Positions 2,685 to 11,334 of a stretch of DNA of 64,000 nucleotides are shown in pieces (positions within the stretch are counted from its first letter, which is position 1; each line of letters begins with the position of its first letter). The notes below the pieces were generated by a model that made no database searches, was not told the DNA's origin, and was given only the letters and a program-made list of their open reading frames with translations. A program made the position numbers and the translations under genes. This DNA is from Escherichia coli (lineage in GTDB: Bacteria; Pseudomonadota; Gammaproteobacteria; Enterobacterales; Enterobacteriaceae): NCBI RefSeq assembly GCF_003018255.1, contig NZ_CP027440.1. The stretch is one strand, 5' to 3'.

Positions 2685-3026
2685 TCAGGCGACTTTCTGT
2701 TTACCCGCAATCACCCCAATAAATTCCCGCACCTGCTTTTGTTTACGCGCCGACAGCTTGCACACCTGGCGCAGCGACTGCATTAGCTCGCTCTCTTCGG
2801 GGGCGGGTGGTTGGGCGGTGAGGACAATACAGCCTTCCATCACTTTGACAGCTATCGCCGTGCCGGTGGCAAAACCGGCGGCTTCCAGCCACTGACCTTT
2901 CAGGGTGATGGCGGGAATACGGCTGTAATCCGGGTAGCGACTCGCATAACTCACGGTTAATTGACGGTTATTTGCCGGGGAGACTTCTGCTTCGAACGGT
3001 TGTGCAATAGAATGCGTGTCAGTCAT
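2685..3026 (-). CDS. symE: SymE SOS-induced toxin (type I toxin-antitoxin, AbrB-fold RNase-like), 113 aa
   Basis: Translation from ATG at 3024-3026 ([52 protein letters not shown]...) matches SymE; AAGGA Shine-Dalgarno; the ORF-track N-terminal extension is probably not translated. Confidence 0.85.
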
Positions 3027-3097
3027 AACTGCTATTCCTTGAAAATAGTGATTGTGATGAGCGGTGCGGGTGTGTTGGCGCACATCCGCACCGCGCT
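3020..3097 (+). ncRNA. symR: SymR-like cis-antisense sRNA covering the symE start codon and 5' UTR (approximate ends)
   Basis: Plus-strand -10 TAGAAT at 3008-3013 with weak -35 TTCTGC; the start would fall a few nt inside symE, as described for SymR; a 14-bp stem-loop at 3062-3095 could be the 3' end. Boundaries are inferred. Confidence 0.4.
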
Positions 3098-3104
3098 AAA
3101 TACC

Positions 3105-3120
3105 TGGATATATCATCAGT
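3105..3120 (-). promoter_or_regulatory. Candidate LexA box in the symE promoter
   Basis: Minus strand reads CTGATGATATATCCAG, i.e. CTG-N10-CAG with an AT-rich core, about 80 nt upstream of the symE ATG; symE is a known SOS gene. Confidence 0.35.
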
Positions 3121-3197
3121 AAATACAGGGAAAGTCCAGCTAAAAATTAATGAAAATAAGATAGAAGTTAGCGTGAAATATAATTTTTGGTGATGTG

Positions 3198-3234
3198 AAT
3201 AAAGCGGCTATTGAGCCGCTTTATTGGTTTTATG
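3198..3234. terminator. Hairpin terminator between hsdS and the symE promoter
   Basis: Perfect 11-bp stem AATAAAGCGGC/GCCGCTTTATT with 6-nt loop, followed by GGTTTTA on the plus strand; 13 nt downstream of the hsdS stop on the minus strand. Confidence 0.5.
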
Positions 3235-3246
3235 AGGGCGAGAAAA

Positions 3247-4983
3247 TTAGTTTATCGCCGCGTTAGTCAGTGCGTCTGCAAGGTGCAGTTGGGTTTGTTG
3301 GGCGGTTTTTATACGAGTTTTAAGCTTATCGCATAGTTCATGAAGTAAACCTACTTGTGAAAATATTCTATATTGTTCAGTTAATGGTGGGCATGGGAAT
3401 GAATACAACATTACACTATTTGCTGATAGGTTGGGTTGTGCTGAGCCATTATCAAAGCGGTAAATCTGTGAGCGCCCAAATGGACTGGTTAAATAATTAT
3501 AAATATACCCTCCCATTTCTGTGATAAATGGTCTAATGATCATTAGTGATGAGGCAATAGCTCCTGTTTCATAGGGGGTTACAAAGGCAGTTTTACCAAA
3601 AGTTGCTCCTCGTAGGCAATAAACCAAATCACCTTTTTGAATTTTCCCACTTCTTAATTCATTAAATTTTCCTTCGGTTATAAAATTCATTTCTGTAACC
3701 GTAAGTGTACCATTTTTTTCTATATGTCCAGTATTGATCCAAGGAATACCTTGAGAAACATACTCATTTTTATTGGGATAATTACTTCCACGATCGCCAT
3801 TTATAAACTCTGATGTTAAACCAAATTTACACCACTCCCACCCTTCCGGCAGTTCAAACGGTTTTTCCTCATTGCTAATTGGCGGTAGTGGTTTTTGTTT
3901 TTTTATTTTCCCTTCTTTCACCAGTTGAGCTTTTTCCTGCGCAATTCGTTTGAGCAGTTCAGAGGCGGGTTCGTCATTCGGATCCTGCGGCACAAGTTTA
4001 CCCATTACGGCCAGTTGAAGAATGGTCTGTTTTAACGCATCCACGCTGGCTTCGGTGGTAAATAGGGTGTCGAAATGCTCGCTAATACGCGCCCAGTTTT
4101 CAGCCAGTTCCTCGGCGTTTTGGCTGTCTGTAAGCGTTCCCAACAGGGTTTCAACCAGTTGCTGATGTGCGTCCAGACTGGTCAGGGATTGCTGTTCCAG
4201 TTGGTCGCAGAGAACTGTAAGTTCTCTGATTTTTCTGACAATTTGTTGTTGTTCATTTATAGGCGGTAAAGCGATTATCTGTTGTTCCATTTTTTCTTTA
4301 GTCATATGGAGCATTGCAATACCGTTACCTTGCGATTTTATTTTATCTGTAATGGATAAAAGAAAATCATGTATAAAATATTTGTTTGAGTACTCTTCTG
4401 CAAATAAATTTAATTTCCATATATGGTAGTGATAAATTACTTTTTCTCCTGTCCAAATGAATGGCCCAAAAGATGCGGACCAAGCGTATATTAAATCACC
4501 ATTATTTATATATTTGTTTTCGTCTAATTGGAGGTCAGAGTAATACCACTCATTTGATGTGAATAGATTACCAACACGCAGCAAAGGAGTGCCTGTTTGA
4601 AGCATTTCATGTTTTTTATATGCTCGACCGTTAATAACCTCCATGAGATCTGCAACCCGCACCCACTCCCATCCCTCCGGCAATTCAAACGGCTTCTCTT
4701 CCTCGCTAATTCCTGGCAGTGGTTTTTGCTTTTTAATTTTACCTTGCTTCACCAGCTCTGCTTTTTCCGCAGCAATACGCTTCAGCAGCTCCGACGCCGG
4801 TTCATCATTCGGATCCTGCGGCACCAGTTTACCGCGCACCGCCAGTTCCAGAATCAGCTCACGCAATTTCTTAATGCCATACAAATCAATTTTACCGGAA
4901 CTGCCGCGCCCGGCGGTGGAACGGGTTTGCAACGCCGAGGTCCAGGTTTCCATATGATCAACGATCAGCTTTTCCACACTCAT
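3247..4983 (-). CDS. hsdS: Type I restriction-modification specificity subunit HsdS (578 aa)
   Basis: Two AT-rich variable domains separated by duplicated conserved segments (KLVPQDPNDEPASELLKRIA...KPFELPEGWEW twice); start overlaps the hsdM stop (TGATG). Confidence 0.85.
   Translation of the reverse strand: MSVEKLIVDHMETWTSALQTRSTAGRGSSGKIDLYGIKKLRELILELAVRGKLVPQDPNDEPASELLKRIAAEKAELVKQGKIKKQKPLPGISEEEKPFELPEGWEWVRVADLMEVINGRAYKKHEMLQTGTPLLRVGNLFTSNEWYYSDLQLDENKYINNGDLIYAWSASFGPFIWTGEKVIYHYHIWKLNLFAEEYSNKYFIHDFLLSITDKIKSQGNGIAMLHMTKEKMEQQIIALPPINEQQQIVRKIRELTVLCDQLEQQSLTSLDAHQQLVETLLGTLTDSQNAEELAENWARISEHFDTLFTTEASVDALKQTILQLAVMGKLVPQDPNDEPASELLKRIAQEKAQLVKEGKIKKQKPLPPISNEEKPFELPEGWEWCKFGLTSEFINGDRGSNYPNKNEYVSQGIPWINTGHIEKNGTLTVTEMNFITEGKFNELRSGKIQKGDLVYCLRGATFGKTAFVTPYETGAIASSLMIIRPFITEMGGYIYNYLTSPFGRSQIYRFDNGSAQPNLSANSVMLYSFPCPPLTEQYRIFSQVGLLHELCDKLKTRIKTAQQTQLHLADALTNAAIN
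3829..4032. repeat. hsdS internal direct repeat, copy B (central conserved region)
   Basis: About 200 bp, roughly 80-85% identical by eye to 4660-4863; encodes the second GKLVPQDPNDEPASELLKRIA...PFELPEGWEW segment. Confidence 0.7.
4660..4863. repeat. hsdS internal direct repeat, copy A (N-terminal conserved region)
   Basis: Direct repeat partner of 3829-4032 within the same gene. Confidence 0.7.
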
Positions 4984-6452
4984 CAGTTAACCTCCTTGCC
5001 AGACAGCGCAGCGCCAAGAATATCGCGCAGTTGATTACGCAGCGTCTGGATCTCCGCCTGCTGTTTTGCATACTGCGCTAACAGTTCGTCCGGGTCATGG
5101 CTGACGGTTTCCGCCTGATGTGGGTTTTTAATATCCAGATTGAAGTTACGCGCAATCACGTCATCAATGCTGACTTTCCACGCTTGCTCATTCTCGATGC
5201 GGCTGGCAAAACCATCGGCCTCGTTACCCCACCAGTCAATCTCCGCCTGAAACTCTTCGAACTTCATCGGCTTGGTTTTACTGTAATTTTTCACGCCCGC
5301 CGGATACGGATGCTCATAGAACCAAATCTCTTTGGTTGGCTGACCTTTGGTAAAAAACAACAGGTTGGTTTTAATGCCGGTATAGGGGTTAAACACACCA
5401 TTCGGTAAACGCACGATGGTATGCAGATTGCACTCTTCGGTAAGCAGCTTTTTGATTTTGGTTTTAACGCCTTCGCCAAATAGCGTGCCATCCGGCAATA
5501 CCACCGCCGCGCGACCGTTTTTCGCCAGTACTTCCACAATCAGTTGCAGAAACAGATCCGCTGTTTCGCGGGTTTGCATCTCTGCCGGAAAGTTCTTCTC
5601 AATACCGTCTTCTTCCGTGCCACCAAACGGCGGGTTGGTAACAATGACATCCAGTTGCTCATCCCAGGAGGAAAGCGGTTTGTTCAGGGTGTTGTCGTGA
5701 CGAATTTGTACAGGCACTTCAATGCCGTGCAGCAGCATATTGGTGGTCGCCAGCAGGTGCGGAAGCTGTTTTTTCTCGACACCGTGGATCTGTTGTTGCA
5801 GCGTCTGATGATCGGCGACGCTCTTCACGTATTTGTTCTTTACATGATCGAACGCGCAGGCAAGAAAACCGCCCGTACCGCAGGCCGGGTCCATAATGGA
5901 TTCGCCGAGTTTCGGATCAACGCGATCCACCATAAAGCGAGTGACGGCGCGTGGCGTATAGAATTCGCCAGCATTGCCCGCAGATTGCAGATCTTTAAGG
6001 ATCTGTTCGTAAATATCACCAAACAGATGGCGTTCGCTGGCGCTGGTAAAGTCAATTTCGTTCAGCTTGTTGATCACCTGGCGCAGTAGCGTACCGTTTT
6101 TCATATAGTTATAGGCATCGCTGAACGCCTGCTTCACCACGTAGCCGCGTGGGTTTTTATCGATAGGCGCAGTGAGGTTTTTCAACGCCGGGAACAGATC
6201 ATCATTAACGAATTCCAGCAGGGAATCACCGGTAATGCCCTGAGCGTTTGCGGCCCAACTGCGCCATAAATAACGCTGTGGGATCGGATATTGATAGTTA
6301 TCCTGCTCCAGTTCCAGCGCCTCTTCCTGGGCATCGAAGATTTTCAAAAACAGCAGCCAGGAGAGCTGACCGAGACGCTGCGCATCGCCATCCACACCGG
6401 CATCTTTGCGCATAATATCTTGTAATGATTTGATTACTGAACTGATAGACAT
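4983..6452 (-). CDS. hsdM: Type I restriction-modification N6-adenine DNA methyltransferase HsdM
   Basis: SAM-binding motif DPACGTGGFL and catalytic NPPFGG present. Start chosen at ATG 6450-6452 (MSISSVIK...); in-frame alternative ATGs at 6464 and 6488 (longest ORF 4983-6488). Confidence 0.85.
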   Translation of the reverse strand: MSISSVIKSLQDIMRKDAGVDGDAQRLGQLSWLLFLKIFDAQEEALELEQDNYQYPIPQRYLWRSWAANAQGITGDSLLEFVNDDLFPALKNLTAPIDKNPRGYVVKQAFSDAYNYMKNGTLLRQVINKLNEIDFTSASERHLFGDIYEQILKDLQSAGNAGEFYTPRAVTRFMVDRVDPKLGESIMDPACGTGGFLACAFDHVKNKYVKSVADHQTLQQQIHGVEKKQLPHLLATTNMLLHGIEVPVQIRHDNTLNKPLSSWDEQLDVIVTNPPFGGTEEDGIEKNFPAEMQTRETADLFLQLIVEVLAKNGRAAVVLPDGTLFGEGVKTKIKKLLTEECNLHTIVRLPNGVFNPYTGIKTNLLFFTKGQPTKEIWFYEHPYPAGVKNYSKTKPMKFEEFQAEIDWWGNEADGFASRIENEQAWKVSIDDVIARNFNLDIKNPHQAETVSHDPDELLAQYAKQQAEIQTLRNQLRDILGAALSGKEVN

Positions 6453-6518
6453 GTTGTATTCCATGAAAAACAAGGCCTTCTGCAACATGATGGTTGCAGA
6501 AGGCGCAAAAGAGAGTTG

Positions 6519-8951
6519 TTAAGCAGAGCGGGGCGGTAATTGGTAGATTTCGTTTTCCAGCTCGCTGAGCGCCTGATTATACCCGTTACGGTCGCCAAAT
6601 CCGGTTTTAATAATCTCCGGTAAGGTGCCCATGCTGTCGAATGGTTTAAGTTTCAGCACCTGAATACTTTCGATCTCCTGTACGCCCGCATCGGCGTATT
6701 TATCCAGCAGATTATCGAGCACGGCTTGCGCTGCTTCAGAGTATTTTGTGAAGTAGTTCCGCTTGCGCACGTTCTCGGCGCGCTCTTTGCGGGTTAACGG
6801 CGGCTGACCATACACTACGTGGCAAAGCATGTCGAACGGGTCGAGATCTTTACCGACTTCTTCTGCCAGTACTTCCCAGATGATCCCCTGTTGTTCCAGC
6901 TCGTGAATGATCGCTTCTTTGCGATCGGCGTCCTGCCACTTGCGGGTAAAGTCATCCAGCGAGGCATATTCTTTGAGCAGTGTTTTGCGGGTGTAATCTT
7001 TAAAAGATTCGGTAACCAGTTTACCGTCGGCATCGTAATACTGAACACGCTGCGCAATAACGCCCACCGCTACACCGTTGACGTGAAACTTGCGGATTTT
7101 CTTCTCGTCTTCTTCCGGAAGTGGGCCGACATCATCGGTATCGGTAACCTGGTATGGTGGCGCAGGCGGTTCATCAACGCCTGTTACCTGTTCGTCGTCA
7201 TGTTCGCTGATTTCTTCGAGTTTCTCTTCAAAATCAGATTCTGGATCGGCGATATCCTCTGATGTGGTATCCATGACTTTTTCGGGAATGCCATCGAAAC
7301 GCTCATCGGCAAACAGTTCGGTGGCTTTTTTAAAGTCGAGGATGGTAAACCAGAGTTTGCCGTAACGTTCGTCGATGCGTGTACCACGACCGATAATTTG
7401 CTTGAATTTGGTCATCGACTGGATGTTCTGGTCCAGTACTACCAGTTTGCAGGTTTTAGCATCCACACCAGTGGTCATCAGCTCTGAAGTGGTCGCGATA
7501 ACCGGGTACGCTTTTTTCGGGTTGATGAAGTTATCCAACTGAGCTTTGCCAATTTCATCATCGCCGGTGATTTTCATGACGTATTTGTCGTTCTTTTTCA
7601 CCTGCTCCGGGTTGAGATTCACCAGGGCGCGGCGCATACGTTCTGCATGATCGATGTCGTTACAGAAGACGATGGTTTTATCCATCGGGTTGGTGCGCTT
7701 GAGGTAGTCGGTAATGGTTCTGGCAACCAGTTCTGTCCGTTCGTCGATTACCATCGTGCGATCGAAATCTTTCTGGTTATAGATACGATCGTCGATCACT
7801 TCGCCGTTTAAGTCAGTTTGCCCTTTGGTTGGGCGCCAGCCTTGCAGATCAACATCAATATCAACACGGACAACTTTATAAGGGGCGAGGAAGCCGTCTT
7901 CGATCCCTTCTTTTAGCGAGTAGACGTAAACCGGATCGCCGAAGTAATCCGTGCTGGAGACTTCATGCGTCTCTTTTGGCGTGGCGGTTAAGCCAATTTG
8001 GGTGGCGGAACTGAAATAATCAAGGATCTCTCGCCAGGCGCTGTCTTCGGATGCGCTGCCGCGATGGCATTCGTCGATCACGATCAGATCGAAGAAATCT
8101 GGTGCGACTTGTTTAAACGCTTTTTGGTCTTCCTCCGGGCCAGTTATAGCCTGATAGAGCGCGAGGTGAATTTCATAAGCGGGATCAATGGTGCGTCCGC
8201 TGACTTTGGTCATTGCCGTACCAAATGGCTGGAAATCATTATTTTTGGTTTGGTCGACCAGAATGTTGCGATCGGCAAGGAACAAAATGCGTTTTTTATT
8301 TTTTGATTTCCACAGGCGCCAGATGATCTGGAATGCGGTATAGGTTTTCCCTGTTCCGGTCGCCATGACCAGCAGAACGCGGTTTTGCCCGTTGGAGACG
8401 GCTTCAATGGTTTTGTTGATTGCCTGAAGCTGGTAATAACGAGGCGATTTGCCGCTGCCATCGTCGTAATAGTCCTGAGTAATCACCGGAAGCTGAGCTT
8501 GTGTGTATCCTTTCCAGAGGCAGAATTTTTGCCAGAGTTCAGCGGGGGAGGGGAAGTCATCCAGCGTTATTTGCTTTTCAAGGCATTCACCTTCAGCTGC
8601 GGTGGCATCGCGGAAGATAAAGCCATCACCGTTGGTGGCAAAAACAAAAGGAACGTCCAGCAGGCGCGCATATTCAATGCCCTGTTGCATCCCTTTGCCA
8701 ATTTCATGTTTGTTGGCTTTTGCTTCAATCACGGCTAAGGGAATGCCTGGTTTGTGATACAGCACGATGTCAGCAGATTTTACCGTTCTGCGTGCCGCAA
8801 CTTTACCACGTACGATGACTTTACCGTTCCGGAGTTTGACCTCCTGTCTGATTTGCGTTGTGTTGTCCCAGCCTGCATTGAGAATGGCTGGCATAACGCA
8901 TTTGGTAATGATGTCTGCTTCCGTCAGGTTACTTAGGTTCAGTTCCGCCAT
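6519..8951 (-). CDS. hsdR: Type I restriction endonuclease subunit HsdR, 810 aa (EcoAI-like / type IB size class)
   Basis: Helicase motifs [11 protein letters not shown] (Walker A) and VIDECHRG (DECH box); 810 aa is far shorter than EcoKI-type HsdR; gene order hsdR-hsdM-hsdS on the minus strand. Confidence 0.9.
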
Positions 8952-9091
8952 GGGGTGTTCTCATCTAAATGCGATGCGTAAATTCTACACAGAAAAATAG
9001 ATGAATTCATCTGTTCAAAGAGTATTATCAGCGTTAAGTCACTGTTTTAAAGGTATTCTTGAGTTTCATCAATAGCTGGATAAGGATTCAT

Positions 9092-10060
9092 ATGGAGAAT
9101 GTTCGGTTCTTGCAAGGAGTGAAACAATATTTTTGTACTAAGGCATTAGATGTCATTCTGCTAATTTATCTACTCCTTGGTTTTATACTTCTCCCTTATA
9201 AATATCTGTGGAAAGATATTATTTTATCTCTGTACTTTGTTGGTATTCTTCTTTATGCATTAGTGGAAGAAAATCGCATTGCAGAATATATGGGGTATTT
9301 TGTTAAGTTCAGTAATAAAAACAGGTTGAATAGTTGTGCTGCCTGGTGTTCACTTATTGCATGGTTTATATTTTTGTTTTTTGTGCTTTCAATTAATATT
9401 TTTCCAGTCAGTGCCTCTGTATATATTTTTAGTGCTTTTTCATTATTTGTTTTTCTGGGGGGTATTTTTATTATATTAGAGTTAGAGTTTAAAGAAAATA
9501 AAAAATTAATGATTATTAGGTCTGTGACTATAGCAGTCATGCCAATTATATATTTATTCACAAGTAGTTATGCTTCCAGTTTATTTTTAAGTTTGAGTAA
9601 TCTAAACATTACGCTAACTCCATGGGTTGAGTATTTCTGGAAAGGGATGGTTTTTATGTTGCTTTTCTTCATGTTAATGCAACTTATTATCTATTTTGCT
9701 TTTTTAACTCTGGGGACTAAATTAAGTGTGTATAGGTTGTTTATACTTGCCGGAGCATTTGTAGTATCTACTTTTTTAGTGGCTTTTGCTTTAAAAAATG
9801 TAGAAGGTATTTCGTACTACGTTTTAAAAAGCACCATAGATTTTGAATGGCGTAATCAGATTAAATGTGGCCAGTTGAATATTTCACGTTCGAATGAAAA
9901 GTATTTTGGGTTTAATACTGATAAATATACTGTATTTTATTCCGGCAGAGATGGTAAATGGGGCTTTGATGAGTTGAAATGTAAGAAAGGTTCTGACAGG
10001 AGAGATGCATATTCTATTGAGAATGTCTCAGAATATAACGTGCCTGGATGGCTGAAATAA
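9092..10060 (+). CDS. Hypothetical polytopic membrane protein (about 7 TM helices plus 80-aa hydrophilic C-terminal domain), very AT-rich gene
   Basis: Long ORF in AT-rich DNA; ATG at 9092 preceded by AAGGA (the ORF track begins at a TTG at 9059); hydrophobic segments throughout; lies where K-12 has mrr; I recognise no family. Confidence 0.55.
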   Translation: MENVRFLQGVKQYFCTKALDVILLIYLLLGFILLPYKYLWKDIILSLYFVGILLYALVEENRIAEYMGYFVKFSNKNRLNSCAAWCSLIAWFIFLFFVLSINIFPVSASVYIFSAFSLFVFLGGIFIILELEFKENKKLMIIRSVTIAVMPIIYLFTSSYASSLFLSLSNLNITLTPWVEYFWKGMVFMLLFFMLMQLIIYFAFLTLGTKLSVYRLFILAGAFVVSTFLVAFALKNVEGISYYVLKSTIDFEWRNQIKCGQLNISRSNEKYFGFNTDKYTVFYSGRDGKWGFDELKCKKGSDRRDAYSIENVSEYNVPGWLK

Positions 10061-10377
10061 GTCATCTTTATAAATTATATAGTAAAGGTTCTGGTCATAA
10101 ACGAGCATAGTTAAACATAAACGGGGCATACTCCACACACTTGATGTGCAGCAAGAAGTTGAACTCATGGCTTTGGTTAATAAATCTGACGAAGATATTG
10201 ATTACAGCGACATTCCTGCGTCTGGTAGCGAAGCATGGGCTGACGCCACACGCGGCAATTTTTTGCCAGATCCAGGTATTCACGCGCAATAAAACTTAGC
10301 GGAGGGGAGCACGTCGTTCTGTTTCCCCCTCACTGCTAAGTGGGGCATTGGGTTGCTTTACACTCAACCTTTTACGA

Positions 10378-11334
10378 TTATTTCCTCAACCCCGCAAACG
10401 CCGCCCGAATCTTATCCTCCGGCAGCTGAATCCCGATAAACACCATTGTGCTATGCGGTGTTTCATCGCCCCACGGGCGGTCCCAGTCGGCGCTGTAGAG
10501 GCGTTGGACGCCCTGGAACAGCAGGCGGCTAGGTTCGCCGTCAATCCACAGCATCCCTTTGTAACGCAGTAGTTTATCCGCCGATTCCAGCAGCAGGTTT
10601 TCCATCACGCGGGAAACTTCGCTGATATCTACCGGGTAATCCAGTTCCACCACAATCGACGAAATATCGTTTTGTTTATCCGCGATAAAGTGGAAACGCG
10701 GTTTGGTGCTGACGACGTTTTCTTCCAGCATAAAACCGTTGGTGTTGAACAACAGGCCCAGGTCGATGTCACCGTGGGTGACGGTGTAGACCGGTGCGCG
10801 GGCGTTGATGCGCGCCAGGCGTTCACGCAGTTTCTCTACTTCGCCTGCGACGTCGGTTTTAGTCAGCAGAATACGGTCAGCGTAGCCCACCTGGGACTGG
10901 GCGATGGTGAACTGGTTCATCTGCTCATCGGCATGTACCGCATCCACCAGCGCAATCACGCCATCCAGCAGGTAACGCTGGCATAAAATCTCATGGGAGA
11001 AAAAGGTCTGAATAATCGGGCCGGGATCGGCCATGCCGGTGCATTCAATGACCAGACGGTCGAACTGAATATTGCCCTTGTCGAGATTGTCCAGCAGGTC
11101 GAGTAGCGCGTCCTCCAGCTCGTTGGAGCGCGAACAGCAGATGCAGCCGTTGGTCAGCGTTTTGATCTGCGTGGCGCGGTCGCCAATCAGTTGATCATCA
11201 ACGGAGACTTCGCCGAATTCGTTTTCAATCACGGCAATTTTGTAGCCGTGCTGTTCATTAAGAATATGGCGCAGCAGGGTGGTTTTGCCCGCGCCTAAAA
11301 AACCGGTGAGTAGGGTAACTGCAATCGGGTTCAT
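10378..11334 (-). CDS. yjiA: CobW/P47K-family GTPase (zinc chaperone-like) YjiA
   Basis: MNPIAVTLLTGFLGAGKTTLLRHIL (P-loop) from ATG at 11332-11334; the ORF-track N-terminal extension is not used. Confidence 0.9.
   Translation of the reverse strand: MNPIAVTLLTGFLGAGKTTLLRHILNEQHGYKIAVIENEFGEVSVDDQLIGDRATQIKTLTNGCICCSRSNELEDALLDLLDNLDKGNIQFDRLVIECTGMADPGPIIQTFFSHEILCQRYLLDGVIALVDAVHADEQMNQFTIAQSQVGYADRILLTKTDVAGEVEKLRERLARINARAPVYTVTHGDIDLGLLFNTNGFMLEENVVSTKPRFHFIADKQNDISSIVVELDYPVDISEVSRVMENLLLESADKLLRYKGMLWIDGEPSRLLFQGVQRLYSADWDRPWGDETPHSTMVFIGIQLPEDKIRAAFAGLRK

Follow-up and report, generated by a model that had tools for sequence, protein, structure and literature searches.

In type I restriction-modification (R-M) systems, family membership is judged from the restriction (HsdR) and modification (HsdM) subunits, whose identity exceeds 90% within a family and lies at 17–26% and 25–33% between families (PMC2481252). 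It has been known for decades that type IA and type IB systems are alleles of one hsd locus in Escherichia coli (PMC3874165, PMC2481252). The type IB prototype is EcoAI of E. coli 15T-, which recognises GAG N7 GTCA. EcoAO83I (Eco377I; GGA N8 ATGC) of E. coli A0 34/86 was placed in the same family through complementation and cross-reaction with anti-EcoAI antibody; its subunits are 99% (HsdR) and 98% (HsdM) identical to those of EcoAI, which it complements, and it is experimentally functional (PMC2481252). Another type I enzyme, EcoGIV of the O104:H4 strain C227-11, recognises CCAC N8 TGAY with a methyl interval of 9 (PMC3874165, Table 1). Here, we describe the hsd operon found at positions 3247–8951, on the minus strand, of a 64,000-nt window of E. 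coli contig NZ_CP027440.1 (assembly GCF_003018255.1), to which all coordinates below refer. Very probably, this operon encodes an intact type I R-M system that belongs to the EcoAI family (type IB), is chromosomal and takes, as an allele, the place held by the type IA genes (EcoKI) in K-12.

The operon consists of three co-directional minus-strand open reading frames (ORFs), and both the interval and the retained gene order hsdR-hsdM-hsdS agree exactly with the initial annotation of this DNA. In the ORF list, hsdR (6519–8951) encodes an 810-amino-acid (aa) restriction/translocase subunit of the EcoAI family and hsdS (3247–4983) a 578-aa specificity subunit, while hsdM (4983–6452), delimited by its Pfam match and the RefSeq start, encodes a 489-aa N6-adenine methyltransferase subunit. 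The ATG of hsdS overlaps the stop codon of hsdM by 1 nt (TGATG at 4983), an arrangement that PMC3510504 also gives for hsdM and hsdS of EcoKI. In K-12, the corresponding proteins are 1170 (HsdR), 529 (HsdM) and 464 aa (HsdS) long, which bears out the earlier remark that all three subunits differ from the K-12 alleles and that HsdR is far shorter than the approximately 1170 aa of EcoKI. The exact sequences of all three proteins are already present in public protein collections.

Family membership was examined against the reference loci of CFT073 and O157:H7 Sakai, as well as K-12. HsdR is 99.4% identical to its counterpart in CFT073 and 99.5% to that in Sakai, the corresponding values for HsdM being 99.6% and 99.4%; when the O26-type system is included, the ranges are 99.4–99.8% for HsdR and 99.4–99.6% for HsdM. 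The CFT073 and O157 systems are in turn 99% identical in these two subunits to EcoAO83I (PMC2481252), and the identity to the family thus lies well above the limit of about 90% by way of CFT073 and Sakai, the EcoAI prototype being reached through these loci and not by direct alignment. Against EcoKI, on the other hand, identity drops to 26.6% for HsdR and 28.6% for HsdM, and at the DNA level the hsd genes of K-12 can be aligned over no more than two short stretches, of 177 and 108 bp, at 68–69% identity.

Protein models point in the same direction. With the NCBIfam equivalog NF046051, a model named "EcoAI/FtnUII family type I restriction enzyme subunit R", HsdR scores 1191.8 bits over residues 9–804 of 810 (cut-off 550 bits), but it reaches only 216.6 bits with the EcoKI-type model NF008521, whose cut-off is 729 bits. 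Its C-terminal Pfam domain, EcoEI_R_C (648–803, E 1.7e-36), bears the name of a type IB enzyme. The EcoAI-like (type IB) class had initially been proposed from subunit size, with best matches to type IA or ID families named as the outcome that would overturn it; the matches obtained favour type IB. An EcoAI-type operon at this locus is in itself already known and already annotated in RefSeq, where the pipeline label (PGAP) at the same locus is "EcoAI/FtnUII family".

The domains and catalytic motifs expected of a type I R-M system are all in place. In HsdR, Pfam places HSDR_N at 9–120, ResIII (ResIII/DEAD) at 169–326 and Helicase_C at 412–526, and the motifs D61...E76-A-K78, QGIEY (90–94), GTGKT (199) and DECH (293) are intact. 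HsdM carries HsdM_N (4–130) and N6_Mtase (140–452, E 1.3e-93), with motif I (DPACGTGGF) at 188 and motif IV (NPPF) at 273 also intact, and HsdS carries two Methylase_S domains (102–269 and 396–549). These correspond to the general features of type I systems, namely a PD-(D/E)xK nuclease with an SF2 motor in HsdR, an NPPF N6-adenine methyltransferase in HsdM, and a specificity subunit with two target recognition domains (TRDs). The PADLOC models REase_I and Specificity_I cover HsdR and HsdS from end to end (886.7 bits for HsdS with Specificity_I PDLC03179), and MTase_I covers residues 1–480 of the 489 of HsdM. The nearest solved structures are a Vibrio vulnificus HsdR fragment (3H1T, E 1e-157) and, for HsdM, 3UFB. 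A reading of the operon as a decayed pseudogene was rejected because ORFs and motifs are intact throughout.

The specificity subunit has the architecture described for type IB enzymes, in which the domain order is D2-S1-D1-S2 (PMC3874165), the conserved region is long at the N terminus and short at the C terminus, and a direct repeat begins near aa 50 and 325 (PMC3874165, PMC2481252). From an alignment with three other type IB alleles, we delimited, all on the minus strand, an N-terminal conserved region (aa 1–108; 4660–4983; GC content 0.52) that is invariant among the four alleles, a variable N-terminal TRD (TRD1, aa 109–255; 4219–4659; GC 0.33), an invariant central block (aa 256–385; 3829–4218; GC 0.50), a variable C-terminal TRD (TRD2, aa 386–550; 3334–3828; GC 0.35) and a short C-terminal conserved region (aa 551–578; 3247–3333) with the tail QTQLHLADALT.AA.N. 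A 192-bp direct repeat was found by repeat search at 4663–4854 (aa ~44–107) and, in a second copy that the alignment also supports, at 3832–4023 (aa ~321–384); the two copies are 80% identical and 831 nt apart. Gene order, chromosomal locus and this HsdS domain order with its internal repeat are thus shared with EcoAI. The two enzymes differ in both TRDs: compared with the EcoAI-like HsdS of CFT073, identity is 53% overall and neither TRD matches in DNA, and the recognition sequence should therefore differ from that of EcoAI. EcoAO83I, which we compared by its published description and not by sequence, likewise belongs to type IB, occupies the same locus and has different recognition domains.

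The two TRDs have distinct closest relatives. TRD1 is 100% identical, in both DNA and protein, to that of hsdS in the O104:H4 strains C227-11 and 55989. The operon as a whole occupies the same locus as EcoGIV and is 98.6% identical in DNA over 3829–8962, so that the N-terminal region, TRD1 and the central region of HsdS are held in common; only a weak alignment is obtained over aa 386–550, however, and given this unrelated C-terminal TRD one half-site must differ from that of EcoGIV. TRD2, which has no match in the hsdS alleles of CFT073, Sakai or C227-11, is 99.6% identical in DNA to that of the O26:H11/O111:H11-type IB system (strain 01_3327, HsdS WP_000110079). That system shares the flanks of the operon described here, including a 322-aa ORF (92% identity), but its TRD1 is unrelated and its HsdS is 589 aa long, compared with 578 aa here. 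Judging from these identities, HsdS is a natural hybrid that combines the N-terminal TRD of EcoGIV with the C-terminal TRD of the O26/O111:H11 type, and this rare pairing of two known TRDs is the sole mildly new element of the operon.

The way in which such a hybrid may have arisen is suggested by the composition of the gene. The TRDs have 33–35% GC and are 99.6–100% identical between lineages, whereas the rest of hsdS has around 50% GC and its conserved parts are 96–97% identical (96.6–97.5% for the N-terminal region and 96–97% for the central region, against other type IB alleles). This contrast fits laterally exchanged TRD cassettes, swapped by recombination within the conserved regions. 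Other natural pairings of TRDs were seen as well, among them P0197, in which an EcoAI-like N-terminal TRD stands beside the C-terminal TRD of EcoGIV.

We searched 5426 complete E. coli genomes for these elements. TRD1 is present at 99% identity or more in 59 of them and the exact hsdS in seven, its PacBio-sequenced carriers including 2014C-3338 (CP027452), SCU-171 (CP054363), CP076709 and AP027254. The exact HsdS protein also occurs on 569 contigs of a large sequence collection, and near-identical HsdS proteins of 578 aa with both TRDs the same are annotated in Shigella. The family as such is far more widespread. A type IB hsdR is found in 975 genomes (945 of them near full length), always as a single copy and in all genomes but one on the chromosome, and an EcoKI-type hsdR in 936, which makes the type IB allele about as common as that of K-12.

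According to the initial annotation, the DNA does not reveal which sequence is recognised. This was too pessimistic for one half of the site, since the comparison of variable domains with domains of known specificity, which it had itself proposed, returned the complete match of TRD1 to EcoGIV. Solved structures gave no help here, as the best match for HsdS was the N-terminal TRD of EcoKI at 26% identity, which is too distant to assign a specificity. In C227-11, EcoGIV is linked to this locus, the one type I locus examined there. Written in the opposite orientation, its site becomes RTCA N8 GTGG, which is spaced like GCA N8 GTGG, the site of CfrAI, a type IB enzyme of known orientation in which GTGG is read by the C-terminal TRD (PMC3874165). 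Furthermore, a type IB HsdS of Citrobacter freundii ATCC 8090 has a C-terminal TRD that is 92.6% identical to that of EcoGIV, together with a different N-terminal TRD. If CfrAI and EcoGIV share GTGG through like C-terminal TRDs, RTCA falls to TRD1, and we consider it probable, with fairly good confidence, that this is the half-site read by TRD1. By analogy, the site is predicted to have the form RTCA-N(7-8)-[3-4 bp half-site from TRD2], with methylated adenines 9 bp apart.

The opposite assignment, in which the shared N-terminal TRD reads CCAC and the site would be CCAC-N(x)-[second half-site], deserves to be weighed, as CCAC N8 TGAY was printed in arbitrary orientation according to the note to the table in PMC3874165 and CCAC follows the pattern xxAx of most type IB half-sites. 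The known orientation of CfrAI, the C. freundii protein with its EcoGIV-like C-terminal and different N-terminal TRD, and the equal spacing of RTCA N8 GTGG and GCA N8 GTGG argue against it, and we regard it as possible but rather unlikely. Under the assignment of RTCA to TRD1, we would only tentatively propose that TRD exchange across the central repeat gave the hybrid HsdS a type IB specificity, with RTCA-N(7-8) in its site, that still awaits formal description. If this were true, the specificity would be new, yet it would lie inside a well-known family and mechanism.

Several searches bear on whether such a specificity has been described. No motif for this hsdS allele or for the O26-type C-terminal TRD was found in the methylome papers on O111:H-, O145:H28, ST131, ST101 and MRE600. 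Searching the literature for the names of carrier strains and for the WP accession brought up nothing but unrelated papers, and a pattern search for RTCA N8 or N8 TGAY returned the Loenen review alone. The motif of the hybrid HsdS is probably in REBASE already, through carriers sequenced with PacBio such as 2014C-3338. For the orientation of the half-sites, S.CfrAI was sought with the C-terminal TRD of EcoGIV by itself as a query, but the matches were confined to short fragments and proteins from metagenomes.

Other features concern the expression of the operon. Between hsdR and hsdM there are 66 nt, within which lies a terminator-like site on the minus strand (6475–6504), a hairpin with a perfect 12-bp stem followed by a T-run (CTTGTTTTTC), with an RNA fold of -22 kcal/mol (z = -5.1). 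The longest ORF for hsdM (4983–6488, 501 aa) begins at an ATG at 6488 that falls in the loop of this stable hairpin, and for this reason the 489-aa product, which starts at the RefSeq ATG at 6452, is the likelier one; of the 489–501 aa initially given for HsdM, the lower value is thus retained and the upper is improbable. The hairpin could also terminate or attenuate read-through from hsdR into hsdMS, and together with its T-run it hints at a separate promoter for hsdMS within the 3' end of the hsdR gene. A promoter scan found consensus sites to be no more numerous than in shuffled sequence, and we therefore make no promoter claim.

These observations have to be considered with respect to the possibility that this strain carries the type IB operon in a silent or non-functional state, either as a decaying remnant or as a methyltransferase only. 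A strong hairpin with a T-run separates hsdR from hsdM, the consensus promoter scan did not exceed shuffles, and some E. coli methylomes (O111:H- and O145) lack any type I motif, all of which would be compatible with silence. Nevertheless, the three ORFs are full-length, with the same lengths as many database relatives, each catalytic motif that was checked is intact, and the conservation of HsdR and HsdM above 99% across distant lineages argues for purifying selection. Furthermore, EcoGIV, which has the same HsdR and HsdM backbone, methylates its site in O104:H4 (PMC3874165). We thus consider a silent or non-functional operon to be quite improbable.

Lastly, membership of another type I family (IA, IC, ID or IE), or of a new family with IB-like sizes, can be dismissed with near certainty, for, although size, on which the first assignment was based, does not define a family and the EcoAI prototype sequence was compared only through intermediates, the EcoAI-family equivalog scored more than twice its cut-off where the EcoKI-type model failed, HsdR carries EcoEI_R_C, HsdR and HsdM show about 99% identity to systems that the literature assigns to type IB (the near-identical EcoAO83I by complementation and antibody), and the HsdS repeat and domain order specific to type IB were found.

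Our reading of the locus as a working type IB system with an RTCA half-site nonetheless has four points weighing against it. The identity to the EcoAI prototype is a two-step chain, through CFT073/O157 (PMC2481252), complemented by the NCBIfam model. Given the hairpin and T-run that separate it from hsdR, hsdMS would require an internal promoter, for which the scan gave no signal above shuffles. The choice of RTCA over CCAC hinges on the C. freundii ATCC 8090 HsdS being CfrAI-like, and no source names it CfrAI. Expression, methylation and restriction in this strain are all inferred.

With respect to its chromosomal position, the operon falls within what PMC3874165 defines as the immigration control region, between yjiS (284–448) and yjiA, the same position that it takes in CFT073, Sakai and C227-11. 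In comparison with K-12, only symE/symR (2689–3147, 93.5% identity) and everything from 10378 onwards (98%) can be aligned; homology to K-12 breaks at 3147 and returns exactly at 10378. These breaks demonstrate the allelic replacement at the hsd locus that had been proposed from gene sizes and order. They also modify the proposal that the flanks are kept: symE and yjiA do flank the operon, but mcrBC and mrr have been replaced as well, and the replacement is thus wider than hsd. What remains in common with EcoKI is the chromosomal slot beside symE, the three-subunit logic and the 1-nt overlap of hsdM and hsdS, while the two systems differ in the length of HsdR (1170 aa in EcoKI and 810 aa here), in HsdS domain order and in the neighbouring mcrBC and mrr. 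The 9-kb region is covered to at least 80% in 400 of the complete genomes.

Regarding the neighbouring genes, symE (2685–3026, minus strand; coordinates from the RefSeq coding sequence) matches NCBIfam NF010128 with 223.9 bits, and the antisense small RNA symR (3021–3097, plus strand) scores 91.7 bits with Rfam RF01809 (gathering score 61). Together they form the sole island of K-12 homology in the variable region, at 93.5% identity compared with 98% for the flanking core genes. A second, putative terminator-like hairpin is predicted on the plus strand at 3198–3225, between hsdS and symE/symR. The right edge of the variable region is marked by yjiA (10378–11334, minus strand; NCBIfam NF008578, 679.2 bits).

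The slot of mcrBC in K-12 is occupied here by an intact gene on the plus strand (545–2638) for a 697-aa protein with GmrSD_N, GmrSD_C and DUF5655 domains. This GmrSD-type protein is a type IV restriction-like enzyme (PADLOC Orf5/HEC-06/mREase_IV). In 2014C-3338, RefSeq splits the gene into a "pseudogene" and a 387-aa coding sequence despite 100% identical DNA; as this DNA is uninterrupted, the split looks like an annotation artefact. In the slot of mrr, between hsdR and yjiA, there is a 322-aa ORF (9092–10060, plus strand; 31% GC) that had no match in NCBIfam, PADLOC or Pfam. It is labelled "hypothetical" or "membrane domain protein" in the sources, and represents an uncharacterised gene in a defence hotspot. 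The O26-type locus has this ORF at 92% identity, while CFT073, Sakai and C227-11 have a DUF262 protein in the same slot; in the EcoGIV locus, that protein is 551 aa long. At 10101–10292 (plus strand), relatives annotate a 63-aa "antitoxin" or hypothetical protein. Here no start codon stands at the corresponding position, where the translation opens with T, and the first methionine leaves around 41 aa, so the start of this ORF may have been lost in this strain.

By analogy with EcoAI, one HsdS and two HsdM subunits would assemble into a methyltransferase (M2S), which would use S-adenosylmethionine to N6-methylate a single adenine per half-site of its bipartite target. The addition of two HsdR subunits would give R2M2S, an ATP-dependent endonuclease expected to stay bound at an unmethylated site, to reel in the flanking DNA and to cut it far from the site; incoming phage and plasmid DNA would thereby be restricted. 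This scheme follows the type I mechanism as reviewed in PMC3874165. EcoAI-type methyltransferases, unlike EcoKI, act de novo.

For the most part, the operon matters little beyond its correct annotation, and it raises no unresolved question. Its assignment to the EcoAI family rather than to that of EcoKI does have practical consequences. For instance, DNA prepared in K-12 is predicted to be restricted, and plasmids may need to have sites removed or to be methylated beforehand; the same assignment helps in reading N6-methyladenine methylomes. For the family, the hybrid HsdS would be a further natural case in which the specificity of type I enzymes diversifies through swaps of AT-rich TRD cassettes.

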